From a bacterium (GTDB taxonomy: Bacteria; Armatimonadota; Zipacnadia; Zipacnadales; Zipacnadaceae), in NCBI GenBank assembly GCA_030602615.1, contig JAUVZM010000004.1, forward strand, positions 17,170 through 81,169: a stretch of DNA of 64,000 nucleotides, written 5' to 3'. Below, piece by piece: positions 2,949-42,856 of this stretch. The notes beneath the pieces are model-generated. The model did no database searches and was not told the origin of the DNA. It saw only the letters and a program-made list of their open reading frames with translations. The position numbers were made by a program, and so were the translations under genes. Each line of letters begins with the position of its first letter. The stretch's first letter is position 1.

Positions 2949-3022
2949 GGTAGGAGGGACATTCCTGTCCCGACCGGCACGGCCAATTCGCAAACCGTCG
3001 CGGCAGGAATGCCGCTCCTACC
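2949..3022. repeat. REP-B element copy (ggtaggagggacat...gccgctcctacc, ~74 bp, inverted termini, two internal hairpins)
   Basis: near-identical copies at 8981, 14996, 20434, 20550, 32767; same family flanks the RAYT gene. Confidence 0.8.
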
Positions 3023-3047
3023 AGCCAGTTATTGCAAAGGCCAAATA

Positions 3048-6215: not shown

Positions 6216-6518
6216 ATGCCAGCCACGCTATCATATCCGATGGCCTTTGAGCACAATGGGCTTCTCTACCTGATTGGTTACCGCGGCGGCGCCCAGTATC
6301 TGCGGCGCAGCGCCGATGGCGGGGCCAGTTGGCTCCAATTTCCCGACGGTGAGGAAGAAAAGCTGGTGGCAGCCCGCTCCGACGCCGATCGGGTGGCTTT
6401 CGTTAAGATGGACACACAGGGCTGCCGGCTGGTGGTGGGCGTGCCCAACTATCCTGATATTGACATCTATATCTCAGCCGACGATGGCCAGAGCTGGGAG
6501 CTGGAGGCGTCGCTATAA
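6216..6518 (+). CDS. BNR/Asp-box repeat protein, probable in-frame continuation of upstream fibre gene (readthrough or nonsense-split)
   Basis: 100 aa with SADGGASW and SADDGQSW Asp-boxes; same frame as 3048-6212; stop overlaps next ATG (TAATG). Confidence 0.45.
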   Translation: MPATLSYPMAFEHNGLLYLIGYRGGAQYLRRSADGGASWLQFPDGEEEKLVAARSDADRVAFVKMDTQGCRLVVGVPNYPDIDIYISADDGQSWELEASL

Positions 6519-8821: not shown

Positions 8822-8908
8822 TTCATGAACGGATTCTGCGGGAAACCCGCTTTTTGAAAAAAGCCGGTTTCCCGCACCCTTCCGGCAAAAACTTCAATAG
8901 TGGAACAG
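8822..8908. repeat. REP-A element copy 1 (cataaacggattttgcgggaaacccgctttttgaaaaaagccggtttcccgcac...ggcaaaaactt..gtggaacag); bidirectional terminator-like
   Basis: GC stem-loop gcggg-aaa-cccgc followed by T5 on + strand, and gcggg-aaa-ccggc followed by T6 on - strand; 10 nt after stop of 764-aa gene. Confidence 0.75.
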
Positions 8909-8910
8909 GT

Positions 8911-9083
8911 GTCGCGGCAAGAATGCCGCTCCTACCGGACGAGGAGGGACATCCGCGGACCTCACTAGCACCAACACGTTGGTAGGAGGGACATTCTTGT
9001 CCCGATTGATACGCCAATTCGTGTATCGTCGGGGCAGGACCCGCCTTCGCCAAGGCTACGGCGGACGTGATGCCGCTCCTACC
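8911..9083. repeat. cluster of partial and complete REP-B copies, with embedded repeat-C segment (9040-9072)
   Basis: right-end fragment 8911-8936, left-end fragment 8938-8962, composite full copy 8981-9083 interrupted by a ...ccgccttcgccaaggctacggcggac... insertion. Confidence 0.7.
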
Positions 9084-25857: not shown

Positions 25858-27600
25858 TTACTCTATTGCTTCTTGCCTGATCAAGTACACCTCGTCCCCC
25901 GCCCTTACTTCTTCCTCTACTTTTAAGCCAAACGTAGTATTGGCCCTGACTTCTTCTACGTCCGCGTTATCGACTTGCAATGATTCTACGCTTTGTCTGA
26001 AGAGGAACTGGTCTCGATAGAATGCCACCTCGTCACCACGTCTCACGTCGACTCGTACAGTTGTCTCGGCGACGCCTTTCCGGTCATAGTAGTGAGTCAC
26101 TTTGCCAGCCAGCACAGAACCTGCAGGCAGGAACTGAATGAGCCCAACCTGGCGCAGCGACCACTGCAAATCGCCCGCCGTGAGTTTGCGCTCACGCAAC
26201 ATAAGCATTGCACGGCGTACATCCCACGTGGTAGCCAACCCCGTGCCGTCTCGTCTTGCGTCCTTTATTTGTTGCTTTCTGAAGGGCACTGGTTCACGAG
26301 TCGATGGCTCTAAGTTTCGCTGGTGATTGACGATGAATATGCCGCCGATGTCAATTCTTCTCATGACACTCTGACGTCGCTTAACGTACCTTAGAATCTG
26401 CTGACAATCACTGTCTTTCGGGCCTCCCAACAACCCCTTGGTTTCCACGAGGGTGAGCTCCCGCTCCTCCTTCAACTGTATATCCTCCTCTTTGTCCTCG
26501 CCCTTCTCATCGCACACCTCTACATCCTCATACCCAATACCCCTCAGAACCTCCGCTAGGTTCTCCACCAGTTCATCCCCCGAAGCAGTGCATATTTTGT
26601 CCAGATGCGCGACAGATTCCCTCCTTTGCTCTATCTGTTCGTCCAGTTCCTTTAATCGTTTGGTGTGTTGCTCTTCGAGCCGTTGGCGGTCTTCGTAAAG
26701 GTCTTTAATCTCCGGCATCTGGTACTTCGGGTCGTTTCTCCAGCTCTCTGCCTCAAAGTCAGGAAACAATTTAGGGACAAGTTCAGGTAATGTCGCGGTC
26801 AACAGGTAGCTACAAACCGGTGTCAGCCTCTCAAACTGGGGAAGGACTACTAGGAAGCCGTCCCCCCAAAGATCGGCGAAGCCGACACAGTCTCCGTCGC
26901 GGTTGGTAGCAAGCGGACGGCCCACCTGGTCTCTTGGGAAAGCTCGCCGGTAGTAAGCATCAGAAAGAAAATCCGACAAGAAATCCCCGAACTTGGTCCC
27001 GAGCGCGCCTTCGGCGGGGAAGACCTCTTCACCGAAAACCGTCTTGTGTGTGCCGTATAACGTTGGCAGCCAGTCATAATTGTTGATGCTTGCTGCATCT
27101 GTATCACGAATTCCCCCGTCTCGTACGTTACCCATGTAGTACTTCTCGCTATCAAAGGCGCCCGCAAACACGACTACCACCCCTCCATTATTGACAACCC
27201 GTACAAATTCAGCCGTCTTGTGCTTCGCCATAAGATACCGTGGATTGAAGTAGTTTTGGCCATCGGGCGCATATATGCACGAATGTTCGGCAGGTTCGCG
27301 GTCAGGCAGTGGTGGTGCCTCACCAGCCTCCTCTACATATCGTCCACCAAGGTCTACTAGTACAATGTCGCTTTCCCCAAGGCCTCCCAAACGTCCGTTC
27401 ATGGTGCAGATGATGTTGCCTTGGCGCTCACATTCATACGGTTGCCCGAACGTTCCCTTCTTGACGTTAAAGCCCTGCGACTTGAGCTCCTCCGCACACT
27501 CGCTAGGCATGTCAATCAGAAATACCCTCGGTCTAGCGTGAACTTCCTGCTGTTCATTCCCGGGTGGCACTTCCTCTGCCTTGCGCTGTCGCCAAAACAT
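25858..27600 (-). CDS. 580-aa multidomain protein: N-terminal alpha/beta domain, coiled coil, restriction-endonuclease-like D...ExK core, C-terminal IF2-domain-IV/EF-Tu-domain-II-like beta-barrel; candidate defence nuclease
   Basis: GC visibly lower than flanks; motif DVEVCDEKG...ELTLVETKG (D-x20-E-x-K); C-terminus ESLQVDNADVEEVRANTTFGLKVEEEVRAGDEVYL parallels IF2 C2 [38 protein letters not shown]. Confidence 0.6.
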   Translation of the reverse strand: MFWRQRKAEEVPPGNEQQEVHARPRVFLIDMPSECAEELKSQGFNVKKGTFGQPYECERQGNIICTMNGRLGGLGESDIVLVDLGGRYVEEAGEAPPLPDREPAEHSCIYAPDGQNYFNPRYLMAKHKTAEFVRVVNNGGVVVVFAGAFDSEKYYMGNVRDGGIRDTDAASINNYDWLPTLYGTHKTVFGEEVFPAEGALGTKFGDFLSDFLSDAYYRRAFPRDQVGRPLATNRDGDCVGFADLWGDGFLVVLPQFERLTPVCSYLLTATLPELVPKLFPDFEAESWRNDPKYQMPEIKDLYEDRQRLEEQHTKRLKELDEQIEQRRESVAHLDKICTASGDELVENLAEVLRGIGYEDVEVCDEKGEDKEEDIQLKEERELTLVETKGLLGGPKDSDCQQILRYVKRRQSVMRRIDIGGIFIVNHQRNLEPSTREPVPFRKQQIKDARRDGTGLATTWDVRRAMLMLRERKLTAGDLQWSLRQVGLIQFLPAGSVLAGKVTHYYDRKGVAETTVRVDVRRGDEVAFYRDQFLFRQSVESLQVDNADVEEVRANTTFGLKVEEEVRAGDEVYLIRQEAIE

Positions 27601-27692
27601 CTAGCTGCACCTCTCTATCACCAATCTCCGCCCCCAGTCTACGCCTGTCCGCCGGTTGCTGTCAATCGCCCCGTCTCCGCCCTTTTGTCCGG

Positions 27693-27742
27693 CATAGCTT
27701 TAGCGAAGGCGGATGCCCTGTCCCCTCCCGTAAGGGCGCGGC
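27693..27742. repeat. repeat-C copy (..gggcatccgccttcgctaaagctatgccggac.., minus-strand orientation)
   Basis: matches 40575-40607, 38147-38195, 9040-9072, 45289-45326. Confidence 0.5.
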
Positions 27743-29987: not shown

Positions 29988-31883
29988 TCAGGCGGTGGCG
30001 CGCTTGGCGCGTTTGGCTTGCTTGGTGCGGTACATGGCCTGGTCGGCCTGGGCGAGGACCTCCTCGACAGCAACATCCGTGCCCGGCTCATAGCAGGCCA
30101 CGCCCATGCTGAAGCCGAGATCCGCCGGCAGATCGGGGGGTAGTGCGCCATCCCTGGCCCGTTGGTCCAGCCAGTCGGCGAAGGCCTGCTGGAAGCGCTC
30201 GACAGCGACGTGGGCCTGCTCAGTGCCGGTCTCGGGCATCACCACCAGGAACTCGTCGCCGCCGTAGCGGATGACGACATCGGCGGCGCGGCTGGTCTGG
30301 TCCAGCGCGTGGGCCACGCCCTGCAGAATCTGGTCGCCGACCAGATGGCCGCAGTTGTCATTGACCGCCTTCAGGTCGTCAATATCGCCCATTATGAAGC
30401 TGACGTGGTGGCCGTAGCGGTCGGCACGCTTGATCTCCTGGATGATGGTTTCGTTAAAGTAGCGGCGGTTGTAGACGCCAGTGAGGGTGTCGCGGACCAG
30501 TTGGTGGTTAAGCTCCTGCCACAGCTTCTTAGTTTCGGTGATGTCACGGGCGAAGCTGACAATGAATTCATTCTCGCGCAGCTCAACTAAGGTCGCGGCA
30601 ACTTCCAGGTCAACCAGCGTACCGTCCTTGTGCCGGATAGCAGACTCAAAGCGGTGCGAGCCGGCTTGCATCACCTGCTGCATAACCTCGCCCACATCTT
30701 CAGCGGTCATCTGTGCGACCAGGTCACCAATCTTCATAGCCAGCAGCTCGTCCTGTGAATATCCCGCTATCTCACAAAAGGCCTCATTGCACTCGATAAT
30801 ACTGCCATCGGGCCCCATTATCATAACGCCGTCCATAGATGTGCGCAGGATGGTCTCGTTGCGCTGATGGGCAGCTTGCAGCTCTTGTTCGGCGCGCTTG
30901 CGGGCGGTGATGTCAACGAAGCGGCCCTGGAGGACTTGACGTCCGGCAATGTCGGTGAGAACGGCGCTGATGTAGACGGGAACGGTGCTGTCGTCCTTGC
31001 GGATTACTTCGGCCTCAAACTCAGCAGCGCGGCCCTGCTCTATGTGGCGGGCGAACATCTGCTTGTACTGTTCGACCTTGTCCGGCGGGTGGAGTTGGGT
31101 CTGGTGCATCTGCAGGAGCTCTGAGTGGGTATGTCCGGTAAGATTCGCCGCGGCCTCGTTAGCGTCCAACAACATGCCGGTCTGCGGGTCAGCCAGGAAG
31201 ATAGCATCAACAGCGGTGTCGAATAGCACACGGAATCGTTCTTCGCTCTCGCGGAGCTCCTCTTCGGTCTGCTTGCGCTCGATGATGTGGCCGAGGCGTT
31301 CGGCAACGGTCTCGATCAGCCTGCGCTCCTCTTTGCTGAAGGGTCCTTCGTCGGCCTCCGGGCGCTCCTCGTGATAACAGACTCTGATCGCTCCGCTGAC
31401 CTCGCCGTGCATGCGGATATCGGCGGACTGGCACCACTGGCTTTGCTGAGAATCCGGCGAGGCATACTCGCGGTCGTCCACGATAATGCGGGCGGAGGCA
31501 ATGTCGGGGTACTGCCAACTGCCCGGCAGGATATTGACGACGTCCTGAAGCAACTCGTCAAGGTCGGCCTCGGGCGATGATTCTACTATGCTGCTGATGC
31601 CATACAAGCAGTTAAGCTCTTTGTTGCGCTCGCGCAGGACTGTTTCGGCCTGCGTGCGCCTGATGGTAGCGACGTAGGCATAGACACCAAACGGAATGAC
31701 AAGGATGGCAACCAATGAACGCACCCAGAGTGCATGCGCATCGGGGGCGAATAACTGCTGGGCGAAGCTGCCGTCGTGAAGGATGAAGGCGTGTACGGCG
31801 GCCTCAATAATCCAGTAGAGGACGGCCAGTGCGATTCCCACCACTATGAAGTGACGGTCCTGATGTTTGCTGCTATTCTTCAT
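29988..31883 (-). CDS. membrane sensor diguanylate cyclase (2 TM, PAS/PAC domains, GGDEF)
   Basis: RYGGDEFLVV GGDEF signature; PAS-like repeats; start taken at ATG 31883 with SD ggagg (the longer ORF up to 32054 would overlap the HD-GYP gene). Confidence 0.8.
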   Translation of the reverse strand: MKNSSKHQDRHFIVVGIALAVLYWIIEAAVHAFILHDGSFAQQLFAPDAHALWVRSLVAILVIPFGVYAYVATIRRTQAETVLRERNKELNCLYGISSIVESSPEADLDELLQDVVNILPGSWQYPDIASARIIVDDREYASPDSQQSQWCQSADIRMHGEVSGAIRVCYHEERPEADEGPFSKEERRLIETVAERLGHIIERKQTEEELRESEERFRVLFDTAVDAIFLADPQTGMLLDANEAAANLTGHTHSELLQMHQTQLHPPDKVEQYKQMFARHIEQGRAAEFEAEVIRKDDSTVPVYISAVLTDIAGRQVLQGRFVDITARKRAEQELQAAHQRNETILRTSMDGVMIMGPDGSIIECNEAFCEIAGYSQDELLAMKIGDLVAQMTAEDVGEVMQQVMQAGSHRFESAIRHKDGTLVDLEVAATLVELRENEFIVSFARDITETKKLWQELNHQLVRDTLTGVYNRRYFNETIIQEIKRADRYGHHVSFIMGDIDDLKAVNDNCGHLVGDQILQGVAHALDQTSRAADVVIRYGGDEFLVVMPETGTEQAHVAVERFQQAFADWLDQRARDGALPPDLPADLGFSMGVACYEPGTDVAVEEVLAQADQAMYRTKQAKRAKRATA

Positions 31884-31959
31884 CTGGTGGCGGCCTCCAG
31901 TTGGCAGCTCAGGTTCACGCCGATAATTGTGCCCATAGCAGGCAAAGGCTGAAAGCTGC

Positions 31960-32667
31960 CTAGGCTGCTTTGAGCTTCCTGTCCTGGATGATGTCAATGA
32001 AGAGCCCGGCCGCCTCCGGATCAAATTGGCCGCCAGCGCCGGTGTGCAGCTCATCCAAGACCACCGACTCAGCTAGCGCCGGGCGGTAGGGGCGGTCGGA
32101 GCACATCGCGTCATAGGAATCTACGACCGCCATAATCCGGGCTTCGGGGCGAATCTCCTCGCCAGCCAGGCCCTCGGGGTAACCATCCCCGTCCCAGCGC
32201 TCGTGGTGCTGGTGGATGATCCGGGCCACTTCGATCAGGCGGGGGATGGCCCCCTCCCACAGCTCACGGCCCAGCAGCGGGTGCATATAGATAACCCGCC
32301 ACTCAAAGTCGTCCAGCGGGCCAGGCTTGTTGAGAATGGCGCTGATGATGCCGATCTTGCCGATATCGTGGAAGTCGGCGGCAATCTGCAGGGTGCGGAG
32401 CTGGTCATCGTCCAGCCCCAGCACCTCGCCCAAAATGCGGGCATACTGGCGCACCCGCTGGCAGTGGCCGACGGTGTAATTATCCTTCTGCTCTACGGTG
32501 GCATTGAGCAGTTGCAGACTCCACAGCCGCGACGGTGGCGCGCCCGCCAGGACGCCACCAAGCCCGTTGCTCCACCGGGCGCCTGACCCGTTAGAGTCGT
32601 CCGGCCAACCGGTTGTTGGATTCACTGTATCTATCTCCCTCGCGTTCTTCCTTATTACACAATCCAC
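31960..32667 (-). CDS. HD-GYP domain phosphohydrolase (putative c-di-GMP phosphodiesterase)
   Basis: HD motif AADFHDIGKIGI and HHERWDGDGYP. Confidence 0.8.
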   Translation of the reverse strand: MDCVIRKNAREIDTVNPTTGWPDDSNGSGARWSNGLGGVLAGAPPSRLWSLQLLNATVEQKDNYTVGHCQRVRQYARILGEVLGLDDDQLRTLQIAADFHDIGKIGIISAILNKPGPLDDFEWRVIYMHPLLGRELWEGAIPRLIEVARIIHQHHERWDGDGYPEGLAGEEIRPEARIMAVVDSYDAMCSDRPYRPALAESVVLDELHTGAGGQFDPEAAGLFIDIIQDRKLKAA

Positions 32668-32766
32668 CTCATCATTAGTGATATTGGCCGCGGGGGAGGG
32701 GAACTTGAATAACCACGACGGTTAGGGAGGTAAGTTAAAGCCGATGAGGAAGGTGCCACCCTAACT

Positions 32767-32839
32767 TGGTAGGAGGGACATTCTTGTCCCGACCGGCACG
32801 TCAATTCGGACATCGTCGCGGCAGGAATGCCGCTCCTAC
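32767..32839. repeat. REP-B element copy
   Basis: ggtaggagggacattcttgtcccgaccggcacgtcaattcggacatcgtcgcggcaggaatgccgctcctacc. Confidence 0.8.
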
Positions 32840-32901
32840 CAGGAGGGTTTGGAATTGATAACTCTGTTTGAGCCGCATAGCGTTCAGGGAGGGATCTCCT
32901 A

Positions 32902-33975
32902 ATGGCAACGCCACGACTGGGGATTATTGGGCTGGGGACCTTTGGCATCAATCACCTGCGCTGTTTCCGGCAGTTGGGCTACACCGGCACCGCCCAGTTG
33001 GTGGCCGGCTGTGAAGTAAACGAGAGCCTGCTGGAAGAGCGTCAGGAAGAGTTCGACTTTGCGCCGTATACCGATTACGCCGAGATGCTGGACAAAGAGC
33101 AGCTTGACGGGGTCACTGTGGTCACGCCCGACCACCTGCACCACGATATCGTGGTGGCTGCCGCCCAGGCGGGGGTCAATGTGCTGTGCGAAAAGCCGCT
33201 GGATGTCACTGCCAAGGGCTGCGTGGAGATGATTGAGGCCTGCCAGAAGGCGGGCGTGCTGCTGCAGGTGGATTTTCACAAGCGCTACGACGAATACCAT
33301 CGGCGGATGCGCCAGAAGATTGCCGCCGGCGACCTGGGCGCGATTGAGTACGGCTACGTGCATATGGAAGACCGCGTTGAAGTGCCCCGCGACTGGTTCC
33401 CGGGCTGGGCCAAGAGCAGCTCACCGGCATGGTTTCTGGGCATCCACTTCTACGACCTGGCCCGCTGGCTGCTGGACGCCGACGGGCAGGCGGTCTGGGC
33501 GACTGGTCGCCAGGATAAGCTGGCCGAGCTGGGCATCGGGGGCTGGGATTCGATATCGGCCAAGGTCGTCTTCGACAACGGCACGACGGTGGCTTTTGAT
33601 ACCGCCTGGATTCTGCCCGACGGCTTCCCGGCCATCGTCAACCAGGGCATCCGGCTGGTGGGCACGGAGGGGCTGCTGGAATGTGACTCGCAGGATCGGG
33701 GGACGATGACCGTATGCAGCGGCGATGAACCGGCCAATCAGACGCATAACGAGAGCTTCCTGCGCGTGCGCAGCGATGTCCAGGGCCGCGAGGTGTGGGA
33801 GGGCTACGGGATGACCAGCATCGAGCATTTCGTGAGCAATGTGGATATGCTGCTGGAGGGCGGCACGCTCCAGGATCTGGGCGACTATCCGGACGGCAAC
33901 GATGGGCTGCAGGCTACCAAAATCGCCACCGCCGTCCACGAGAGCCTGGAGACGGGAAACGTAGTGCAGATATAG
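32902..33975 (+). CDS. Gfo/Idh/MocA family NAD(P)-dependent oxidoreductase
   Basis: N-terminal Rossmann LGIIGLGTFGINH; EKPL motif VLCEKPL. Confidence 0.8.
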   Translation: MATPRLGIIGLGTFGINHLRCFRQLGYTGTAQLVAGCEVNESLLEERQEEFDFAPYTDYAEMLDKEQLDGVTVVTPDHLHHDIVVAAAQAGVNVLCEKPLDVTAKGCVEMIEACQKAGVLLQVDFHKRYDEYHRRMRQKIAAGDLGAIEYGYVHMEDRVEVPRDWFPGWAKSSSPAWFLGIHFYDLARWLLDADGQAVWATGRQDKLAELGIGGWDSISAKVVFDNGTTVAFDTAWILPDGFPAIVNQGIRLVGTEGLLECDSQDRGTMTVCSGDEPANQTHNESFLRVRSDVQGREVWEGYGMTSIEHFVSNVDMLLEGGTLQDLGDYPDGNDGLQATKIATAVHESLETGNVVQI

Positions 33976-33981
33976 GGGGAC

Positions 33982-34030
33982 GGATAGTGGATAGTGGTTA
34001 GTGGACAGTGGACAGTGGACAGTGGACAGT
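33982..34030 (+). repeat. heptanucleotide microsatellite: (GGATAGT)2 (GGTTAGT)1 (GGACAGT)4
   Basis: seven tandem 7-nt units between Gfo/Idh/MocA stop and rmlD start. Confidence 0.9.
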
Positions 34031-34097
34031 GAACGACGAACAGCCCCACGCTTCCTCAGACGATGCCGGCCAGACCAGGCAGCAGGAGAACGAGAGG

Positions 34098-35003
34098 ATG
34101 ACCGAACTGAGGGACGACAAGCTGGTGATAATCACCGGTTCAGTGGGGATGCTGGGGTCGGCGCTGATGGAGCTGGCGCCGGCGGCGGTGCGCGCGGTCG
34201 GCGTGGACATCGCTGACGGTGACCTGAGTACTGATGCGGGAATCACCAGTGCGCTAGGGCCGTCTGAACCTGACGTGGTGATTCATTGCGCGGGTTATAC
34301 TGATGTGGACGGCGCCACCAGTGAGCCGGAGCTGGCCCAGCGACATAATGCGCTGGCGACTGAAAAGGTGGCAGGCTTTTGTGCCGAGCGCGGCGCCAGG
34401 CTGATCTATATCAGCACTGATTATGTCTTCGACGGGACCAGGGGCAGCCCGTACACCGAAGAGGATACGCCCAAGCCGATAAACGCCTACGGGCGGTCGA
34501 AGCTGGCCGGTGAGCAGGCCACGCAGCAGATCGCTGCCGACTGTCTGATTGTGCGGACGCAGTGGCTGTTCGGGCCGGGAGGGCGCAATTTCGTCGCGGG
34601 CATCGTTGACCACGCCCGTCAGGGCGGCGAGGTGTGGGGGGTAGTTGACGAGATTGGCTCGCCGACCTACACTCGGGATATGGCAACGGCGTTGTGGCAA
34701 CTGGTCGAGAGGCCAGTCAGCGGCATTGTGCACCTGACCAACAGCGGCTACTGCTCGCGGGCGGAGCTGGCGCGGGGGGCGCTGGATGCCGCCGGCCTGG
34801 CCGAAGTACCAATTAGCGAGATTTCCTGTGCAGATTGGGATAGTCCCACCCAGCGGCCGGCGTTCTCGGTGCTTGACAATCGGCGGTGGCGGGAGTTAGG
34901 ATTAACTCCACTGCGGGCATGGCAGGAAGCGATGGCCGAGTACGTCAAGCTGTATCTGCTTGAAACCTGCACAGACAGGTTGACCGAATTCCAAGACATG
35001 TAA
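34098..35003 (+). CDS. rmlD: dTDP-4-dehydrorhamnose reductase
   Basis: LVIITGSVGMLGSAL Rossmann; YxxxK as NAYGRSK; STDYVFDG block; start at ATG 34098 (SD gagagg), not the repeat-encoded upstream Met. Confidence 0.8.
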   Translation: MTELRDDKLVIITGSVGMLGSALMELAPAAVRAVGVDIADGDLSTDAGITSALGPSEPDVVIHCAGYTDVDGATSEPELAQRHNALATEKVAGFCAERGARLIYISTDYVFDGTRGSPYTEEDTPKPINAYGRSKLAGEQATQQIAADCLIVRTQWLFGPGGRNFVAGIVDHARQGGEVWGVVDEIGSPTYTRDMATALWQLVERPVSGIVHLTNSGYCSRAELARGALDAAGLAEVPISEISCADWDSPTQRPAFSVLDNRRWRELGLTPLRAWQEAMAEYVKLYLLETCTDRLTEFQDM

Positions 35004-35045
35004 ACGGAGGAAACTAAGGGGAGGATGGAATAGGAGGACTACCTT

Positions 35046-36209
35046 ATGCCTCGCAGATCCTTCGAAGTTCCCGTGGAACCCGGGGTTCTTATATGGGCGA
35101 GAGAGACCATAGGGTTGTCTCCTGCGGATGTGGCGAAGCGCCTCAATGTATCCGAAGACTTGGTGAATAGATGGGAATGCGGAGAGAGAAAACCTACCGT
35201 CAAGACTTTGGAGAAGCTGGCCGTTGCTTACAAACGTCCACTTGCCGCTTTCTTCTTGCCCGCAGCACCTGTAGAACTCCCTTTGCCATCAGACTATCGT
35301 CGTTTCCCCTCAGACACAAAAGAACCGTTGTCACCAAAGACCCGTCTAGCGATACGACGGGCGCGACGCCTGCAGTCCATCGCGGCGGAGCTAGCAGCAA
35401 CGCTGAATCGGAGGGGCACGATGACGATGGGGGGACTTGAGGCATCGGAGGATCCAGAAACTGCAGCCAACAAGGTTCGAGAGGGACTACGGGTTGGCAT
35501 CGAGACCCAGCTTGCATGGAGGGACGCACGTCATGCGCTCAATAGCTGGAGAGACGTAGTGGAAGAGTCTGGCGTGTTGGTGTCGCAAACGGCAATATCG
35601 AGAGAAAGAATTAGAGCGTTTTGTCTCGCCGAACCGCAACCTCCCATTATCGTGTTGAACTCTCGACATTCAGTGACAGGGAGAATCTTCTCCCTCTTCC
35701 ACGAGTATGCTCATATCCTTCTGGGTAGTGGTGGGATATGCACTATGGAGGAGGCAGACGAACAAACAGAAATATTCTGCAATCATTTCGCGGGAGCATT
35801 CCTCGTGACTGAGCGAGATTTCCGAGAGCATTCATTGACGGGCAACCTAGTAAGCTCACCGTCTTTTCCGCACGACTTCGACGACGCTCTATACCAGCTT
35901 GCCAAGGCATTCAAAGTGAGCAGAGAAGTGATATTGCGTAGAATGCTGATACTCGGTCTAGTCGAAAAAAGCGTCTACGAGCGAAAGAGAAGAGAATGGG
36001 AAGCAAGGGAATGGCAACAAGAAGGGGCTGGAGGGCGTGGACGCGATATGGCAAGAGAATGCATTGGCAAGAATGGTGCTCGCTTTGTTTCACTTGTCCT
36101 GGAGGCGCACAGGAGAGACAGAATCACCTACAGCGACGTTGCAGACTATCTGGGTGTTCGAACTAAGCATTTTGGTGAGATTGAGCAACTCATTGCCCAG
36201 AAAGCTTGA
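35046..36209 (+). CDS. HTH_XRE DNA-binding domain fused to ImmA/IrrE-family (COG2856) zinc metallopeptidase, cassette 1
   Basis: N-terminal XRE HTH (LSPADVAKRLNVSEDLVNRWECGERKP); HExxH as FHEYAHILLG. Confidence 0.75.
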   Translation: MPRRSFEVPVEPGVLIWARETIGLSPADVAKRLNVSEDLVNRWECGERKPTVKTLEKLAVAYKRPLAAFFLPAAPVELPLPSDYRRFPSDTKEPLSPKTRLAIRRARRLQSIAAELAATLNRRGTMTMGGLEASEDPETAANKVREGLRVGIETQLAWRDARHALNSWRDVVEESGVLVSQTAISRERIRAFCLAEPQPPIIVLNSRHSVTGRIFSLFHEYAHILLGSGGICTMEEADEQTEIFCNHFAGAFLVTERDFREHSLTGNLVSSPSFPHDFDDALYQLAKAFKVSREVILRRMLILGLVEKSVYERKRREWEAREWQQEGAGGRGRDMARECIGKNGARFVSLVLEAHRRDRITYSDVADYLGVRTKHFGEIEQLIAQKA

Positions 36210-36688
36210 GTCGAATGAAGCTACCTTTCCCCGGCCGGTGCTGCATAGACACGTCTGCCCTGATTGACTTGAGCATGCAGTACCCTGTTGATGTCTTTCC
36301 ATCACTGTGGGCCGACCTTGAGAGCCTTAAGTCCAATGACCGGTTGACTGCACCGCGTCAAGTTTTTGAGGAACTTCGGCGCAAAAGCGACGCACTCTTG
36401 GAATGGGCAAGAGCTAACAAAGACATGTTCGCAGAGGTGACCGAAGAGCAGAGAGGCCTGGTGAGTGGTATTCTCTCCAAGTTTCCTGAGCTCATAGACG
36501 TCAAGAAAGAAACTGCAGAGGCTGATCCTTTTGTGATTGCCCTGGCGATTAGTGACAGTTGTGCTGTTGTGACGTCGGAACGGCCTGGCACCCCTAGCAG
36601 ACCCAAGATTCCAGATGTGTGCGACCACTACGAGGTAGAATGCCTGTCTCTGGTTGAGTTCTTTCGACAGGAGGATTGGGAGTACTAG
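36206..36688 (+). CDS. PIN-like nuclease-fold protein (DUF4411-type), cassette 1 partner
   Basis: N-terminal CCIDTSALIDL...DVFPSLWADLE resembles DUF4411 start; ATGA overlap with upstream peptidase gene. Confidence 0.6.
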   Translation: MSRMKLPFPGRCCIDTSALIDLSMQYPVDVFPSLWADLESLKSNDRLTAPRQVFEELRRKSDALLEWARANKDMFAEVTEEQRGLVSGILSKFPELIDVKKETAEADPFVIALAISDSCAVVTSERPGTPSRPKIPDVCDHYEVECLSLVEFFRQEDWEY

Positions 36689-36832
36689 CTTTCTCTCTAT
36701 ACCCGCGGTGGGCAGCGCTGGGCTTTGCTCCGCTGCGACCGTGGCAGGAGGCAGTAGGCCATTATCTCCGCACTTATCTAACCGACTAAGCAGGAGGCCA
36801 TAGACAGGCAGCATTTGCCGTGATAGGAGGCA

Positions 36833-38098
36833 ATGCCATTTATGGATTATGACATAGCTGATATCAAGCTTAAAGAAGCAGGAGCGACGCGCATCGAGTG
36901 GGCGGGGCGGCAGATGCCGGTGCTGAGGCTGATTCGCGAGCGCTTCGCGGCCGACCAGCTGCTGACCGGGGAGCGCATCGGCTGCTGCTTGCATGTCACC
37001 TCCGAGACAGCCAACCTGATGCGGACGCTGCAAGCGGGTGGCGCGGAGGTCGCCCTGTGTGCCAGCAACCCGCTGAGCACCCAGGACGAGGTGGCGGCCA
37101 GTATGGTCGCCGACTACGAAGTGGCAGTCTATGCCCGGCACAGCGAGGACCGCGACACCTACTACCAGCACATCAATCAAGTTCTGGATATCAATCCGAC
37201 GATCACTATTGACGACGGAGCGGATTTGATCTCGACGCTGCACTCCCAGCGCCAGGAACAGATCGAAGGCATCAAGGCGGGTATGGAAGAGACGACAACC
37301 GGGGTAATCCGGCTGCGGGCGATGGCTGCCGACGGAGCTTTGCGCTACCCGCTCATTGCCGTCAATGATGCCAACACCAAGCACCTGTTTGATAACTACT
37401 ACGGCACCGGCCAGAGCACAATTGACGGGATTCTGCGGGCGACCAACATATTGATCGCTGGTAAGAACTTGGTAGTCTGCGGCTACGGTGACTGCGGTCG
37501 GGGCGTCGCGATGCGGGCGGCAGGGATGGGGGCCAAGGTAATCATCTGCGAGGTGGAGCCACTGCGGGCGCTGCGCGCGGCTATGGACGGATACCAGGTC
37601 ATGCCCATCGGCGAAGCGGCGCAAATCGGCGACATTTTTGTCACCGTTACTGGCGACAAGTCGGTGATTCGCCGCGAGCACTTTGCGGTGATGAAAGACG
37701 GCGCGGTGCTGGCCAACTCGGGTCACTTTGACGTGGAGATTGACTTGACCGACCTGCGCGATATCAGCACAAGTGTTCGCACCATTCGGCCCAATCTGGA
37801 GGCATATCACCTGGAGGATGGCCGCCAGCTATTCGTAATTGGGCAGGGGCGGCTGGCCAACCTGGCCGCCGCCGAAGGGCACCCGGCCTCGGTGATGGAT
37901 ATGAGCTTCAGCAATCAGGCGCTCTGTGCTGAATATGTGGCGGGGCTAGGTGAGCCGCTGCCGGTGGCTGTTCATACGGTCCCCCAGCACATTGATGAGC
38001 AAATTGCCGCCCTGAAGCTTAAAACAATGGGCATATCCATAGACAGCCTGACCCCCCAGCAGGAAGAGTACCTGTCCAGTTGGGAGATGGGAACGTAG
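36833..38098 (+). CDS. ahcY: adenosylhomocysteinase
   Basis: NAD-binding [34 protein letters not shown] and conserved N-terminal substrate domain. Confidence 0.9.
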
Positions 38099-38146
38099 AA
38101 CAGCAGCACAACGGCAGCCCAACAGCAGCACAATAACCGAACCGGC

Positions 38147-38195
38147 ATCCGCCTTCGCCTCCTCCTCCGCGAAAGCTACGGCGGACGAGGCCGCA
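38147..38195. repeat. repeat-C copy followed by REP-A-like variant hairpin (gcgggggaaccccg...)
   Basis: gcatccgccttcgcc...gcgaaagctacggcggacgagg. Confidence 0.45.
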
Positions 38196-38378
38196 AAGAC
38201 TTTTGAGAGTAGACGGGCGAGGAACAGCTTTGCGGGGGAACCCCGTTATGAAGAAAGTGGCTTCCCCCACACCCCCACCGCAAAGACGTTTAGTAGCGCG
38301 CAGACCCCCGGGGTCGTCCCTACGACCCGGGGGTTCTGCGCTTCAATGTAAGGGGAGAGGGTGCAGGAACGTCAGCAT

Positions 38379-38448
38379 AGAGACAGGATAAGAACAGGTC
38401 CAGAGATAGCATAAGAACAGGTCCAGAAACAGGATAACAACAGGCCAG
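38379..38448 (+). promoter_or_regulatory. three imperfect ~22-bp direct repeats (acaggataagaacaggtccaga / gatagcataagaacaggtccaga / aacaggataacaacaggccagca), candidate operator array
   Basis: located ~85 nt upstream of the second XRE-ImmA gene. Confidence 0.4.
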
Positions 38449-38534
38449 CAGCAAACAACCCGCGAGTCCCTTGACACGGCGTAGCTATTGTGCTATAATA
38501 AGAATGTGAGAAAATCTCACATGGGGTGCCCGCA

Positions 38535-39674
38535 ATGGACGTTGGTCGTCAAGTAAAGAGAGCACGTGAGGAACTGGGATACACCCAGGAGGAGCTCGCA
38601 AGAGCTGTGCGACTGGGGAGGGAAGCCATTATTCACGTCGAAGACGGCTCTCGAACAGTAAAAGTCGGAGAGCTTTGGAACATCGCGCATGAATTGATGC
38701 GGCCTCTGACATACTTCTTGCTGGACGAAGAACCTGAGCAACTGGCCGTGGTGGCACACAGAGGAGGGGAAGGCACGACAAGAGGGGTGAAGAAGGCAGA
38801 GCTCTGGCTACGTCAAAGGCTGGCTGATTTCGCTGAGTTGCACTACTTGTTCAACGTAGGTGGATATGAAACTGCGAAGACGGTGATGCTGCGCAGTGGT
38901 GATGCCTGGCAGGAATCGGTTCGCGCAGCACTTGAGCAACGCAAATTGATGGGCCTTGGCCACGAGCCAATCCGCGATTTATGTGACGTCATCGAAGACG
39001 GGATGGGGGTGCCCATATTTGGCTGGCGGGTGAATGATGATGAGGATTTCTGCGGCATGCTGCTGTTTGACCGCAGCACTCAATCAGCAGCAATATTGGT
39101 AAACTCGGGTCTTCGGTACGCAAGTCGGCGTCGCTTTACCATTGCACACGAATTTGGCCATTATATATGGAAGACCTCTCGACAAGAATTTTCACCAGAT
39201 GTGCTGTTCTACTCGCAGGTAGGAGGTGCGAACAGTTCACAGGAGGAGCGGTTTGCAAATAACTTCGCCGCCCACTTTATGGCTCCAGACGAGGGCATTC
39301 GACAGGTCGTGGCGCAAGGGCAACTCGACCCGTGCGATCCCGAGTCTGTGATGCGAGTGGGAGCGGAGTTTGGCCTCAGTTTTCAGACTACCACATACAG
39401 GCTGCAGAATATGGAACTCATCGGGGTTGATGATGCTGAGAGGCTAAGAGAGACGACTAGGCCCACCTTGTTGCGGGCGTTTCGGTCAGAGCGGGAGCCG
39501 TTCGCCACTGTGTCTTCTCTGTTCCATAGAATGGTCATCGAGGCGTATTTTGGGGGTTCACTATCTGCCGGACGATGTGCAGAGATGGTGGATATGACGA
39601 CCGCAGAATTCACCGAGTCTCTTGATGAAGCGAACAAGGATGCGCGTGCGAGCAAATGGGTTACATCCGGCTAG
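38535..39674 (+). CDS. HTH_XRE + ImmA/IrrE-family (COG2856) zinc metallopeptidase, cassette 2
   Basis: XRE HTH (LGYTQEELARAVRLGREAI); HExxH as IAHEFGHYIWK; alternative GTG start 38526. Confidence 0.75.
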   Translation: MDVGRQVKRAREELGYTQEELARAVRLGREAIIHVEDGSRTVKVGELWNIAHELMRPLTYFLLDEEPEQLAVVAHRGGEGTTRGVKKAELWLRQRLADFAELHYLFNVGGYETAKTVMLRSGDAWQESVRAALEQRKLMGLGHEPIRDLCDVIEDGMGVPIFGWRVNDDEDFCGMLLFDRSTQSAAILVNSGLRYASRRRFTIAHEFGHYIWKTSRQEFSPDVLFYSQVGGANSSQEERFANNFAAHFMAPDEGIRQVVAQGQLDPCDPESVMRVGAEFGLSFQTTTYRLQNMELIGVDDAERLRETTRPTLLRAFRSEREPFATVSSLFHRMVIEAYFGGSLSAGRCAEMVDMTTAEFTESLDEANKDARASKWVTSG

Positions 39675-40126
39675 TGGACTCGAGCATTTGGATTGCGTTC
39701 CATCATCTTGGAAGATTGGATATACTGCTAAAACTGCCGGGGATCAAGATCGTGCCGCAGGTGTTATACGAACTCAGGCGAGGGACAGACGACTTGGCGC
39801 AGAGAGTTGCGCACCTAGAGGATGGCACTGTTGAACAGTTGGAGGTCGACTGCGAGGTGCGTGATACAATGCTCGCCATAGGTCAGTTCCATTACGGCAT
39901 TGGAACAGCTGATGCCGTCCAAGTTGTTTACGCCAAGCTCTGCAAAGAAGTCATTCTCTATATGCGAGATACAGATGCAGAGAGAGTTGGCGTGAAATTC
40001 GGCACCTTCGTTAGGCAACATGGCGCCCTTGTAGAGGATATGCGCGAGTTGGGCATACTATCCCCAGCGGAGGAGAAGACACTGCGGCGGGATCTAGACA
40101 ATTACTTCCCATTGCAGAGCAAATGA
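39656..40126 (+). CDS. PIN-like nuclease-fold protein, cassette 2 partner
   Basis: N-terminal IRLVDSSIWIAF (PIN-like first strand with Asp); overlaps upstream gene by 19 nt. Confidence 0.5.
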   Translation: MGYIRLVDSSIWIAFHHLGRLDILLKLPGIKIVPQVLYELRRGTDDLAQRVAHLEDGTVEQLEVDCEVRDTMLAIGQFHYGIGTADAVQVVYAKLCKEVILYMRDTDAERVGVKFGTFVRQHGALVEDMRELGILSPAEEKTLRRDLDNYFPLQSK

Positions 40127-40259
40127 CGTACTGGGCGGGCTAACTTGGCCCGTGAGGCTGTGAGAGCGGCAGCGGCAATGGGGGATAGGCGGATTTGTGG
40201 GTGATTGTTGTTGGGGAAGCAGATAATCGGTGAATACATAAGATTGGAGGTGTTCCTAA

Positions 40260-40532
40260 ATGAGACGCAAGGAAAAGGTCACAAAAGTCATCGATGGCGA
40301 TACGTTCGAAACGGACAGCCGCAAGAACTCTGTGCGCTTGGCCAACGTGGATACACCAGAGAAGGGGCAGCGGGGTGCTGCCGGAGCACGGGAAAAGCTG
40401 AAAAAGCTCATAGCGGGGGAAGATGTTGGCATTGAGACGGTAGCGCGTGACAAGTACGGCCGCAGCGTCGCTAGGGTGTACCTCGGGCGTGAGTCCGTGA
40501 ACAAGAAGATGCAAGCCAAAGGCAAGAAATAG
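40260..40532 (+). CDS. small thermonuclease (SNase-like) family protein
   Basis: VIDGDTFE...VRLANVDTPEKG SNase core; 90 aa. Confidence 0.6.
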   Translation: MRRKEKVTKVIDGDTFETDSRKNSVRLANVDTPEKGQRGAAGAREKLKKLIAGEDVGIETVARDKYGRSVARVYLGRESVNKKMQAKGKK

Positions 40533-40574
40533 CGGTTAACTGAGGCGGGGGGCGGCGATAGGGGCAGGACAGGG

Positions 40575-40607
40575 GCGGGGCATCCGCCGTCGCTAAAGCT
40601 ATGGCGG
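40575..40607. repeat. repeat-C copy within G-rich tract
   Basis: gggcatccgccgtcgctaaagctatggcggac. Confidence 0.45.
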
Positions 40608-40780
40608 ACAATACATAAGCAACATGACGGGAGCGGGAAACGGTGGCTGGAGGGCTGCCGTTCGTGGTGTCTGGGCGCAAGTTAGCAGGATAGGAAGGGG
40701 GTGGGGAGCGTGGTGGGACCAAACAATAAGCGCACTATAGGCGTCTAATGTAATAGGCTTGTATAACTAAGAAAAGCGAG

Positions 40781-41221
40781 GTGAGTCAAATGTCAGGTAC
40801 TATGGGATTCAGAAGTGTAGGACTGATCGTAGCCATAGCGCTGGCCGGTACGGTCTATACCGCCAGGCCTGCCCACGCCGGGGGGGACCTGGGTAAAGTG
40901 CTGGCCGGCGCAGTAGTAGGCTACCTGGTCTACAAAGCGCTGGATGACGATGACTCAGGCCCGCGGCACCACCAACGGCGCTACAAGCCCGCGCCGCCGC
41001 GGCATCACCCCGGCCGATTTGTCTGTAAGAGATGGGGTCACCACAGGTGGGGCCAGAGGTGTGACCACCGGGGCTGCGAGCGCGACCGGGGCCGAGACCA
41101 CGACTGGGACCGGGATCGCGACCGGGGCCGAGACCGCGGGTACGGCTGGGGCAATGGGCGTGAGCAGGGCGGGAGAGGTGGCCGGGACTACGGTGGGCGC
41201 AGGGGCGGCGGCCATCGCTGA
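40781..41221 (+). CDS. secreted low-complexity His/Arg/Asp/Gly-rich protein (RD-repeat tail)
   Basis: signal peptide then HHQRRYKPAPPRHHPGR...RDRGRDHDWDRDRDRGRDRGYGWG. Confidence 0.4.
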   Translation: MSQMSGTMGFRSVGLIVAIALAGTVYTARPAHAGGDLGKVLAGAVVGYLVYKALDDDDSGPRHHQRRYKPAPPRHHPGRFVCKRWGHHRWGQRCDHRGCERDRGRDHDWDRDRDRGRDRGYGWGNGREQGGRGGRDYGGRRGGGHR

Positions 41222-41446
41222 GGGGTAGGCCGGGCCCGAAGCTATCAGTCGAGAAGAGCGACAATGTAGTCAAGGAGGACAATCTCGTAGGCGGCAGTGT
41301 CAGGATGAGCGGCCAGAGCGGGATTGTCCTCCCGTAGTTGCTGGCGGGTGGGATGAGTGGCTATTTCTGTTCGATGAGGATTATGGTGATGTTGGCTTCG
41401 TCTTTGCTCTGCTGGACGGCAACGGAAGTCATATCGGGGGGCTCGG

Positions 41447-41665
41447 CTATACCTTGTCCCGGAGAAAGCCGCTCAGAGAGATGACTTCATACCCGTGATC
41501 CTCGTGCAGGTATCGTGCAACAGTCGAGCGCCCCGCTCCGTAATGTCCCATGATAGCTATAACCCAATTCGCTAGCATTGTCTTGTCATACTGCCCCATC
41601 TGCAAGTCGTGGCATTTCCTCCCGGTCCAACAAATAGGGCCAGAATCCCTTCCCTCCTCTAACAT
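41447..41665 (-). pseudogene. truncated P-loop kinase-like fragment
   Basis: Walker A-like IAIMGHYGAGRSTVARYL but only 72 aa. Confidence 0.25.
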
Positions 41666-41749
41666 GCGAAATATGAGAATGCCCCGTCACGGCATTCCCC
41701 CCGCAACAGGCTCTAGGCGAGGGCACCCTCGCCCCCGACTCTGTTGATA

Positions 41750-42856
41750 TCATTTGATTGCATACAGGTCCAGAGCACCGAGCGGTTGAGTCATTACACC
41801 GTCGGCCCACAGCGGATGGGTCAGGGCGGTTGGAGGATTGAGCTGGTCAGTAAACAAGTAGAAGGGCAACGACTTGCCCTCGATGCGTAAGTGATCCAGC
41901 GAGACCGCCAGTTCGTATAATGCCCCGCCATTCACGCTGCGATGTATGCGTACATAAGCCATCTTCTCCGGGACATTGTCCAACAAGGTGTAGGCTTCAC
42001 GGCTGGACAGCATAAACGGCGAATCCTCCCGCTTGACCTCGACAAACGCCAGTTCCGACCCCAGTGATTCTTGAATTTGCCCGATCAGCTCATCCGACGC
42101 CCCTACCACGATCTTGGGAGCAATATACTCACGCCCCAGCTCCAGCTCGACCTCGACAGCCCGCAGCAACTCCGCTTCGGTAGCCACGCGAAAATTGCCC
42201 AACACAAACTCCTCAAAGCTCATCGCTTTGCCGATTTCCGCCAGGACGTTAGGCTCGCTGGTGCAGAAGAAATTAGCACACTTGACTGGCTTCCAGCGAC
42301 CCGCCAGGCAGCCGTCGGCATGAAATAGACACCACGGCGGGGCAATGCGCCGACCGGTGAGACGAAAGCTGGCCCCGGTCTGGCTGGCCACTTCGATGAG
42401 CATCTGTGTTCCTCCGGGCAATGCCTGAATCACCCGCAGGGCATTAGCGCGGATGCCGGAAAAACGCTGCAGGTAGCTGAAGGTCTTCCGGTCTATTTCA
42501 AAGTCTGACTCGAGAAAATCGCAAAACTGCTGCCACGCCTCCAGGTGGGCACCCAGTTTCTCCCGCTCCTCTTTGTACTTATACTTAGTAGGCAACTGCG
42601 CAGCGACGTGTTCCAGAGCAGTCAAGTCAGTGCGCAGCTCAGCCGCATGGCGTTTGAGCCCCTCGCGCAGGATTTGCTCGCGGCCCTCCTCGAGCAGTGT
42701 TCCCTTGTGCAGGCGCAGCAGATCACGGCTGCCCATCATCGTTCCCTGATGGCAGCAGCTATTTCCACAGGCACCGCAGACCCGGTCAATAATCCCATCC
42801 AGCTTCTGCGAGGCTGCCCTAACAGCCTCCACAAGCGTCTTCAACGAGTCACTCAT
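41750..42856 (-). CDS. hypothetical protein with N-terminal CxxCxxCC (YkgJ/UPF0153-like) metal-binding motif
   Basis: CGACGNSCCHQG; 368 aa; start overlaps upstream enolase-superfamily gene. Confidence 0.45.
   Translation of the reverse strand: MSDSLKTLVEAVRAASQKLDGIIDRVCGACGNSCCHQGTMMGSRDLLRLHKGTLLEEGREQILREGLKRHAAELRTDLTALEHVAAQLPTKYKYKEEREKLGAHLEAWQQFCDFLESDFEIDRKTFSYLQRFSGIRANALRVIQALPGGTQMLIEVASQTGASFRLTGRRIAPPWCLFHADGCLAGRWKPVKCANFFCTSEPNVLAEIGKAMSFEEFVLGNFRVATEAELLRAVEVELELGREYIAPKIVVGASDELIGQIQESLGSELAFVEVKREDSPFMLSSREAYTLLDNVPEKMAYVRIHRSVNGGALYELAVSLDHLRIEGKSLPFYLFTDQLNPPTALTHPLWADGVMTQPLGALDLYAIK

Follow-up and report, generated by a model that had tools for sequence, protein, structure and literature searches.

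Two gene pairs that lie on either side of the housekeeping gene ahcY in a 64,000-nucleotide stretch of contig JAUVZM010000004.1 (positions 17,170 to 81,169; here called the window) are probably independently acquired type II toxin-antitoxin (TA) or abortive-infection modules of the VapBC52 (RosmerTA-like) kind. Cassette 1 occupies the gap between rmlD and ahcY and consists of A1 (35046-36209, 387 amino acids [aa]) and the toxin candidate B1. Cassette 2 is located 3' of ahcY and consists of A2 (38535-39674, 379 aa) and B2 (39656-40126, 156 aa). Both A proteins match HTH_3 and Peptidase_M78 (1.7e-11 and 5.8e-19 for A1, 6.7e-8 and 2.3e-13 for A2) and contain an HExxH sequence, HEYAH and HEFGH, respectively. 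The fusion of an XRE helix-turn-helix (HTH) domain with a metallopeptidase, which an initial annotation of this DNA had read from the letters, is thus borne out, and all six open reading frames (ORFs) that it listed are present on the plus strand where it had placed them. Its suggestion that a protease-antirepressor antitoxin and a PIN nuclease form a TA or abortive-infection module fits the profile, structure and context evidence given here. Its description of such systems as largely uncharacterised has been overtaken by a prediction from 2017 (PMC5499597), by work on RosmerTA in 2022-23 and by the structural and functional analysis of VapBC52 in 2026 (PMC13273310).

VapBC52 of Mycobacterium tuberculosis (Rv2515c/Rv2514c, PDB 9vzy/9vzz) provides the characterized counterpart. 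The antitoxin VapB52 has an HTH-like N-terminal domain, an IrrE/CapP-like zinc peptidase in the middle and a C-terminal domain of four helices by which the active site of the PIN toxin is occluded. It binds a dimer of the toxin VapC52 at 1:2 (PMC13273310). Single-stranded DNA (ssDNA) frees the cysteine-switch loop (C229) of VapB52 from the zinc, and self-cleavage at a conserved FR motif removes the N-terminal domain (PMC13273310). Once freed, the DUF4411 toxin VapC52 cuts tRNAs, and it gives M. smegmatis protection from phage (PMC13273310, 2026).

Cassette 1 resembles this system in the antitoxin-then-toxin gene order, the three antitoxin domains and the DUF4411 toxin. A1 harbors an XRE HTH at residues ~17-67, a linker with D83-Y84-R85, an M78/IrrE peptidase and a helical C-terminal domain at ~340-387; the peptidase residues are H219-E220-x-x-H223, the switch residue Cys232 and Glu242. 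Using HMMER, residues 10-376 of A1 were aligned to residues 2-380 of VapB52 (9vzy_A; E = 1.5e-43), with D-Y-R-R (from D83) opposite D-F-R-R and HEYAH opposite HEFVH, and with Cys232, Glu242 and the 'AHRR' C-terminal domain kept. The D[F/Y]RR motif, the HExxH motif, the cysteine switch and the glutamate ligand of VapBC52 are hence all retained. Cys232 aligns with the switch cysteine of VapB52 (C229) and is invariant in three sequences of the A1 family. In PADLOC, the best RmrA match of A1 scored 4.2e-24.

The product of B1 matches DUF4411 (PF14367; 115 bits, 3.4e-33) and aligns over its full length with the DUF4411 chain 9vzy_D (E = 9.7e-18). It carries all acidic residues that are invariant in the family, i.e., D12, E53, D104 and E122 in the numbering of the 157-aa form. 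In the entry 9vzy the large chain is present three times and the small chain six times, as reported for the asymmetric unit of M. tuberculosis VapB(delta23)C52 (PMC13273310). Translation of B1 probably starts at ATG 36215 (36215-36688, 157 aa), 5 nucleotides (nt) past the A1 stop codon, as in homologues of 156 aa; TTG 36206 would give a protein of 160 aa (36206-36688). An overlap of toxin and antitoxin gene, predicted in the initial annotation for both cassettes, is therefore found for A2/B2 (19 nt), but for A1/B1 (4 nt) only if the TTG codon is used. Profile, alignment and motifs add cassette 1 to the VapBC52 family as a new member that is homologous to the solved complex over its full length.

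Cassette 2, as far as sequence comparison can place it, belongs to the same architectural kind as a diverged member, and its toxin comes from a small PIN family of its own. A2 comprises an XRE HTH, an H75-R76 linker motif, an M78 peptidase with H205-E206-x-x-H209 (HEFGH) and a glutamate at ~238, and a UPF0175-like C-terminal domain at ~306-379, in which R347-C348-A349-E350-M351 is invariant. Across the A2 family the linker reads [H/W/Y/R]-R with R76 invariant, at the position aligned with DYRR of A1. The start at ATG 38535 is correct, since the homologues of A2 likewise start with MDIG. Directly compared, A2 showed weak similarity to 9vzy_A (E = 3e-5) and to CapP (7t5t; E = 5.6e-4), and its best PADLOC matches were capP (2e-20) and, among the RmrA models, one at 1.9e-17. 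The spr1629 repressor/antitoxin model was matched below its cutoff in the domain scan. UPF0175 (PF03683) was the single Pfam family matched when the C-terminal tails of A2 and of four homologues were searched in isolation, with 28.1 bits for A2 (E = 1.6e-6, cutoff 27.9), 29.2 bits for the homologue at L210 (L-numbers label comparison contigs or loci from relatives and metagenomes) and E values of 3e-4 to 2e-3 for the remaining three; A2 at whole length reached 24.8 bits, under the cutoff. The tail of A2 aligns with the VapB52-type C-terminal domain and is therefore a probable toxin-blocking element.

B2 is a PIN-fold protein that does not belong to DUF4411. An AlphaFold model built from an alignment of 25 sequences reached a predicted local distance difference test (pLDDT) score of 89.5, compared with a weak model (pLDDT 73) from six sequences. 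In the family alignment D8 and D105 are invariant, E39 is nearly so, and position 86 is D or E. B2 showed no match to PF14367 (DUF4411) or to PF11848 (DUF3368), and the PF11848 matches given for two B2 relatives in a precomputed table were not reproduced. The assignment of both toxins to a DUF4411-type PIN family in the initial annotation consequently stands for B1 and falls for B2. The B2 family is small: a word-indexed search yielded six clusters, and 27 representatives were obtained when 1.84 billion proteins were scanned exhaustively with HMMER. At all four sequence-distinct loci with a B2 homologue that could be located on contigs, an overlapping HTH(+M78) gene of 371-378 aa is located upstream, in unrelated genomic surroundings. 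The same gene pairs are carried by phages (phrog_2439, phrog_11126).

We compared the two cassettes with each other at the level of single proteins and of families. A1 and A2 are 22% identical (BLASTP E = 4e-7), and their families align with an hhalign probability of 98.9% (E = 1.8e-17) over 327 columns, a stretch that takes in the HTH, the peptidase and the C-terminal helices. For B1 and B2 no pairwise similarity was found; their families align with an hhalign probability of 62%, with the acidic motifs in register, which places the two toxins together at the superfamily level only, as judged from their alignments. To call the cassettes paralogous was thus an overstatement, even though A1 and A2 are homologous over their full length. 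At this degree of divergence, the cassettes are best read as acquired independently and not as products of a recent duplication.

Upstream of A2, a sigma-70 consensus promoter (TTGACA-17-TATAAT with TG extension, 12/12 matches) is present at 38471-38499 on the plus strand. Four bases past its -10 box and before the A2 start lies a 19-bp palindrome, ATGTGAGAAAATCTCACAT (38504-38522), which is kept in the upstream regions of 5/5 sequence-distinct homologous A2-B2 pairs at protein identities of 34-55%. These regions are otherwise unalignable; all they share is a -10 box with the palindrome behind it. It is identical in all 19 positions at L082 (A protein 46% identical to A2) and across 17 nt at L211, L212 and L101 (47%), and it has one substitution at L210 (55%). 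At L213 (34%) it reads TGTGGGAAAATCCCACA, with a symmetric change in both arms (TGTGGGA...TCCCACA). From its position and conservation we predict that the palindrome is the operator of a dimeric XRE repressor and overlaps the transcription start. When metagenomes were scanned with the 17-nt palindrome core, 120 loci were obtained, of which only two (L101 and L194) contain A2-B2 homologues; by our estimate the others are most likely chance matches to a 17-mer in a very large collection.

The initial annotation had instead proposed to test direct repeats upstream of A2 as a target of the HTH domain. Three such repeats, AGAGACAGGATAAGAACAGGTCC, are indeed present in tandem at 38379-38447 on the plus strand, with 83-91% identity, but they measure 23 bp and not 22 bp. 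They are absent from all other A2-B2 loci examined, where the palindrome is conserved instead. In L223, a contig of a related genome (GCA_030603495.1), one full repeat and a partial second one stand 5' of entirely different genes, and homology to the window ends at ~38440. Since the repeats occur in L223 beside unrelated cargo, they seem to be part of the host's intergenic landscape and not of the cassette, and a role as operators is unlikely. Further upstream, the stretch at 38225-38345 on the plus strand, comprising a diverged copy of a ~70-nt dispersed intergenic repeat (38225-38295) and a GC-rich hairpin (~38298-38341), is also shared with L223 and is, on this comparison, host intergenic sequence.

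From homology to VapBC52, we infer toxicity, neutralisation, self-cleavage, a trigger and RNA targets for both cassettes. One antitoxin would hold a toxin dimer; the active site of the PIN protein would be blocked by the C-terminal domain of the antitoxin, and the N-terminal domain of the antitoxin would stabilise the complex. The complex or the free antitoxin would repress its own promoter via the HTH domain, in cassette 2 at the palindrome. A stress signal, e.g., ssDNA arising from phage infection or DNA damage, would activate the peptidase, in A1 through displacement of Cys232 from the zinc, and the peptidase would then cleave the linker of its own chain, close to D83-Y84-R85 in A1 and to H75-R76 in A2. 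The complex would dissociate, and the freed PIN toxin would cleave tRNA or other RNA and stop growth.

Several observations weigh against reading both cassettes in this way. The mechanism is transferred from one characterized relative that is ~35-40% identical to A1. B2 reached only a sub-threshold score with the Pfam PIN profile (17.3 bits, threshold 23.6) and belongs to no PADLOC or PHROG family. Neither the family alignment nor structure and profile comparison revealed a conserved cysteine between HExxH and the glutamate in the A2 family. In the A2 homologue at L213 (99-1214), ALLYGH replaces HExxH while the HTH and the UPF0175-like C-terminal domain are kept, so that this branch may not require the peptidase. 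Because the cysteine switch is lacking and HExxH is lost in L213, the trigger of cassette 2 may differ or its peptidase may not be needed, and self-cleavage triggered by ssDNA may not be a valid model for this cassette. A hairpin would also be compatible with the symmetric change that the palindrome shows in L213. As to regulation of cassette 1, the spacer between rmlD and A1 in the window measures 42 bp, and the AT-rich leader found in L086 and L088 is largely absent, with ~30 nt of it missing. A comparison with these two contigs revealed no conserved operator 5' of A1.

Comparison with further systems sets the two cassettes apart in different respects. Cassette 2 shares the three-domain architecture of VapBC52 through the A1 family; it differs in that its toxin is not a DUF4411 protein, the cysteine switch is lacking and the C-terminal domain is matched by UPF0175. 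The host phylum also differs from that of VapBC52 (Armatimonadota-like here). RosmerTA-type systems, for which phage defence was demonstrated in 2022-23 (10.1101/2022.05.11.491447; PMC10440598), likewise combine an HTH with an ImmA-type zinc peptidase in the antitoxin RmrA, and A1 and A2 match many PADLOC RmrA models. The RmrT toxins, in contrast, are heterogeneous, the validated ones including a membrane-depolarising toxin and not a PIN RNase, and neither B1 nor B2 was matched by an RmrT model of PADLOC. In the NetFlax study an ImmA antitoxin node pairs with PIN-like toxins (10.1101/2022.05.11.491447; PMC10440598).

Matelska et al. predicted in 2017 a three-component system with a fused HTH-DUF955 (COG2856) protein upstream of DUF4411.1/COG2405 (PMC5499597), which is exactly the arrangement of the fused protein before DUF4411.1 in cassette 1 or before another PIN-like family in cassette 2. 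Their modules are predictions only, a UPF0175-like domain fused to an HTH-peptidase is not described there, and Pfam contains no dedicated model for the B2 family. UPF0175 antitoxins were reported solely beside COG2405 PIN toxins (PMC5499597); unlike in the UPF0175-COG2405/DUF3368 pairs, UPF0175 is here the C-terminal domain of the 379-aa A2 and not a small stand-alone antitoxin. CapH/CapP (CBASS), ImmR/ImmA and DdrO/IrrE use the same peptidase family and an XRE HTH, but in these systems repressor and peptidase are separate and the output is transcriptional de-repression, whereas in the window a single protein combines both and is coupled to a toxin. A2 moreover lacks the CapP cysteine.

We also analyzed the neighbourhood of cassette 1 in related genomes. 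The genes that frame it are rmlD (34008-35003; dTDP-4-dehydrorhamnose reductase family, RmlD_sub_bind 4e-80) and ahcY (36833-38098; adenosylhomocysteinase, TIGR00936 4e-184), both on the plus strand; the closest AhcY relatives belong to metagenome-assembled genomes (MAGs) labelled Candidatus Zipacnadia and Armatimonadota, at 83-70% identity, and an exact look-up of AhcY gave no match. In the closest MAG, L001, which is collinear with positions 29991-38127 of the window, ahcY comes directly after rmlD, at a distance of ~130 bp. The gene order of the window recurs in four metagenomic contigs that represent two sequence-distinct lineages (L086/L087 and L088/L089), with identities of 61-66% for rmlD, 66-68% for the A1-like gene, 63-71% for the DUF4411 gene and 79-84% for ahcY. 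Because the same order is found in at least two other sequence-distinct lineages, cassette 1 is, on this comparison, an old and patchily retained resident of the rmlD-ahcY gap. In L003 (AhcY 73% identical), the gap (3525-5952) holds a 377-aa gene of unknown function, DUF6978 and DUF1828, and a TdeIII-type restriction endonuclease (7312-8235) follows just 3' of ahcY; L088 has a DNA methylase 5' of rmlD. The rmlD-ahcY neighbourhood is a modest accessory-gene hotspot, and a large defence island was not found in the window. The picture of an islet assembled around ahcY therefore survives in part: cassette 1 is conserved in the gap in other lineages and relatives carry accessory or defence genes there, but the nuclease gene following cassette 2 does not belong to it.

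Cassette 1 is bracketed by a diverged direct repeat. One copy (34883-34930, plus strand) lies within the 3' end of the functional rmlD, and the other is a relic rmlD 3' end at 36705-36785 on the same strand, with ~30 codons to the stop, which translates to ...RWAALGFAPLRPWQEAVGHYLRTYLTD and reads ...LGFAPLRPWQEAVGHYLRTYLTD, each ending at the stop codon. The first 48 nt of the relic (36705-36752) are 71% identical to 34883-34930. It is located directly 3' of B1 in the window and is absent from L086 and L088 despite the same cassette. In its layout the repeat looks like a recombination scar, and the identities of the two rmlD 3' copies to relatives are too similar to tell native from donor. The rmlD ORF of the window extends ~13 codons beyond that of its relatives (34970-35003), into what is intergenic in L086 and L088, and a promoter-like site (TTGACA-18-TAGGAT, 34873-34902, plus strand) is found within the 3' end of rmlD.

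These findings bear on two other explanations. The cassettes could be true TA pairs that act only as selfish addiction modules or stabilise the rmlD-ahcY region, with no role against phage or stress and with a vestigial peptidase, which we regard as possible though doubtful. The retention of cassette 1 in the gap in at least two other lineages, diverging about as rmlD does, resembles vertical residence more than the rapid turnover of defence genes, and the loss of HExxH in the L213 homologue alongside retained HTH and C-terminal domains, as well as the lack of a large defence island in the window, point in the same direction. On the other hand, the conservation of HExxH, of the glutamate ligand and of the cysteine switch in A1 argues for a working, regulated peptidase, the characterized systems VapBC52 and RosmerTA protect against phage (PMC13273310; PMC10440598), and in relatives the equivalent positions are occupied by restriction, methylase and TIR genes. 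It would be far more surprising if the A genes were ImmR/ImmA- or IrrE/DdrO-type regulators left by a decayed prophage or integrative element that control adjacent genes through cleavage of a repressor, with the small downstream ORFs being incidental. M78 and HTH modules are known to regulate mobile elements and the radiation response (PMC5499597; PMC10440598), the GC content over both cassettes is 0.50-0.55 vs ~0.60-0.63 in the flanks, and the relic rmlD 3' end marks a recombination scar beside cassette 1. However, a scan of ORFs near the cassettes yielded neither an integrase or excisionase nor a structural gene of a phage, and the window's single tRNA lies at a distance of 16 kb. The pairing of A and B genes is also constant across unrelated contexts, B1 is homologous to a demonstrated toxin and B2 retains the PIN acidic residues, and HTH and peptidase are not separate genes but fused with a C-terminal domain of toxin-binding type.

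The gene 3' of cassette 2 (40260-40532, plus strand) encodes a small staphylococcal nuclease-like protein (mini-SNase) of 90 aa that matches PF00565 (3.6e-11, 43.9 bits, cutoff 21), in agreement with the initial annotation. It aligns to residues 14-101 of staphylococcal nuclease, with counterparts of the catalytic and Ca-binding positions D21, R35, D40, T41, E43 and R87, and, like the rest of a family of ~90-aa proteins, it covers positions 2-72 of the 107 in the profile. In contrast to the classical enzyme, the C-terminal third is missing across this whole family, which is ~50 residues shorter. A reading as a truncated gene was rejected: more than 1000 homologues are equally ~90 aa long (70-87% identity; MAGs labelled Deltaproteobacteria, Nitrospirota, Pirellulales and Armatimonadetes), and no DUF499 remnant exists upstream or elsewhere in the window. 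A plasmid search with the protein returned only generic plasmid thermonucleases with <60% identity (45% in the best listed records), and a scan of viral contigs gave one weak match.

In 4/4 other distinct contexts sampled (11 contigs, L214-L224), the mini-SNase gene is the last one behind defence-type cargo. These contexts are DUF1156-DUF499 BREX-related systems in two lineages, with an overlap of 35 nt (PMC12839542), a fused methyltransferase (MTase)-Mrr_cat protein and a CAP12/Pycsar-type TIR protein. Cassette 2 might accordingly be thought of as a three-gene system with the mini-SNase as a second effector beside A2 and B2, since the gene lies on the same strand only 133 bp 3' of B2 and its homologues end other defence modules, twice with translational overlap. 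This we consider very improbable. No SNase homologue is present at the other A2-B2 loci (L082-85, L101, L194, L210-213). Nucleotide homology of the window with L223/L224 begins ~50 nt 5' of the SNase ATG (40204-40214), with unrelated cargo further upstream, and the metagenomic contig L081, identical to the window over 38354-40267, ends at the start of the SNase gene. The initial annotation had counted this gene into the islet with cassette 2, which its absence from homologous loci and its occurrence after other defence genes contradict; the mini-SNase may accompany defence loci repeatedly as an accessory nuclease. From the two limits of homology, ~38440 and 40204-40214, cassette 2 would therefore be an insert of ~1.76 kb that includes its own promoter.

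Further repeats were observed in and around this region. Three 11-nt tandem repeats, AACAGCAGCAC, occupy 38099-38133 and start at the first base after the ahcY stop codon. The dispersed ~70-nt intergenic repeat, AACGGATTTTGCGGGAAACCCGCTTTTTGAAAAAAGCCGGTTTCCCGCACCCTTCCGGCAAAAACTTT, has at least eight copies in the window (at 8828, 9357, 11379, 14110, 16955, 19414, 25690 and 45233); it forms two hairpins around a T/A run, resembles a bidirectional terminator and is also found in L223. A 20-nt dispersed motif, TCGCKAAAGCTAYGGCGGAC, occurs four times (9047-9066, 27687-27706 on the minus strand, 38167-38186 on the plus strand and 40590-40609) vs 0.01 expected by chance. Two of these copies bracket cassette 2 and the SNase gene, and a related sequence exists in L224. 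A 30-nt direct repeat (38157/40580) considered as an att pair around cassette 2 and the SNase gene was dismissed, as its core is this dispersed motif with four copies in the window.

A scan of 34000-42000 against Rfam gave no match, and thus no S-adenosylhomocysteine (SAH) riboswitch 5' of ahcY. An ORF of 146 aa at 40781-41221 without family match encodes an N-terminal hydrophobic segment and a low-complexity tail rich in Gly, Arg, Asp and His, the latter encoded by 18-nt repeats at 41064-41135. Large ORFs without a Pfam match at the thresholds used are located at 41750-42856 (minus strand), 3009-6212, 6518-8812, 25858-27600 (minus strand) and 58029-60155 (368-1067 aa); the 368-aa ORF 3' of the SNase gene (41750-42856) also had no match in PADLOC, NCBIfam or PHROG.

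Taken together with the SNase contexts, the locus allows a joint reading that we judge rather unlikely, in which ~38440 to ~40204 is a slot for cargo exchange with the mini-SNase as a widespread, highly conserved companion and, separately, cassette 2 is a distinct branch of the VapBC52 kind. Modules found ahead of the mini-SNase so far are a BREX-related DUF1156-DUF499 system, an MTase-Mrr protein, a TIR effector and the TA pair described here. Placed 3' of many unrelated defence modules, the mini-SNase would serve them as a common auxiliary nuclease or mark the site at which cassettes are swapped.

The interpretation of both cassettes as modules of the VapBC52 kind does not overturn current understanding, as this kind of system was predicted in 2017 and solved structurally and functionally in 2026. 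For annotation, the locus indicates that these antitoxins carry a UPF0175-like C-terminal domain, which is probably the part that blocks the toxin, that tandem repeats next to such cassettes are not necessarily operators, and that a neighbouring mini-SNase is a separate, recurrent gene of defence neighbourhoods. The recently characterized architecture of an ssDNA-sensing, self-cleaving antitoxin with a tRNA-cleaving PIN toxin is extended, by homology, to an uncultured Armatimonadota-like lineage, and the toxins with which its three-domain antitoxin scaffold pairs apparently include a second PIN family, which is very small. With a consensus promoter, a conserved predicted operator and a peptidase lacking the switch, cassette 2 offers a clean test case for the regulation and triggering of such antitoxins. 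The missing cysteine switch, the UPF0175-type C-terminal domain and the almost invariant predicted operator suggest that cassette 2 may sense a different trigger.

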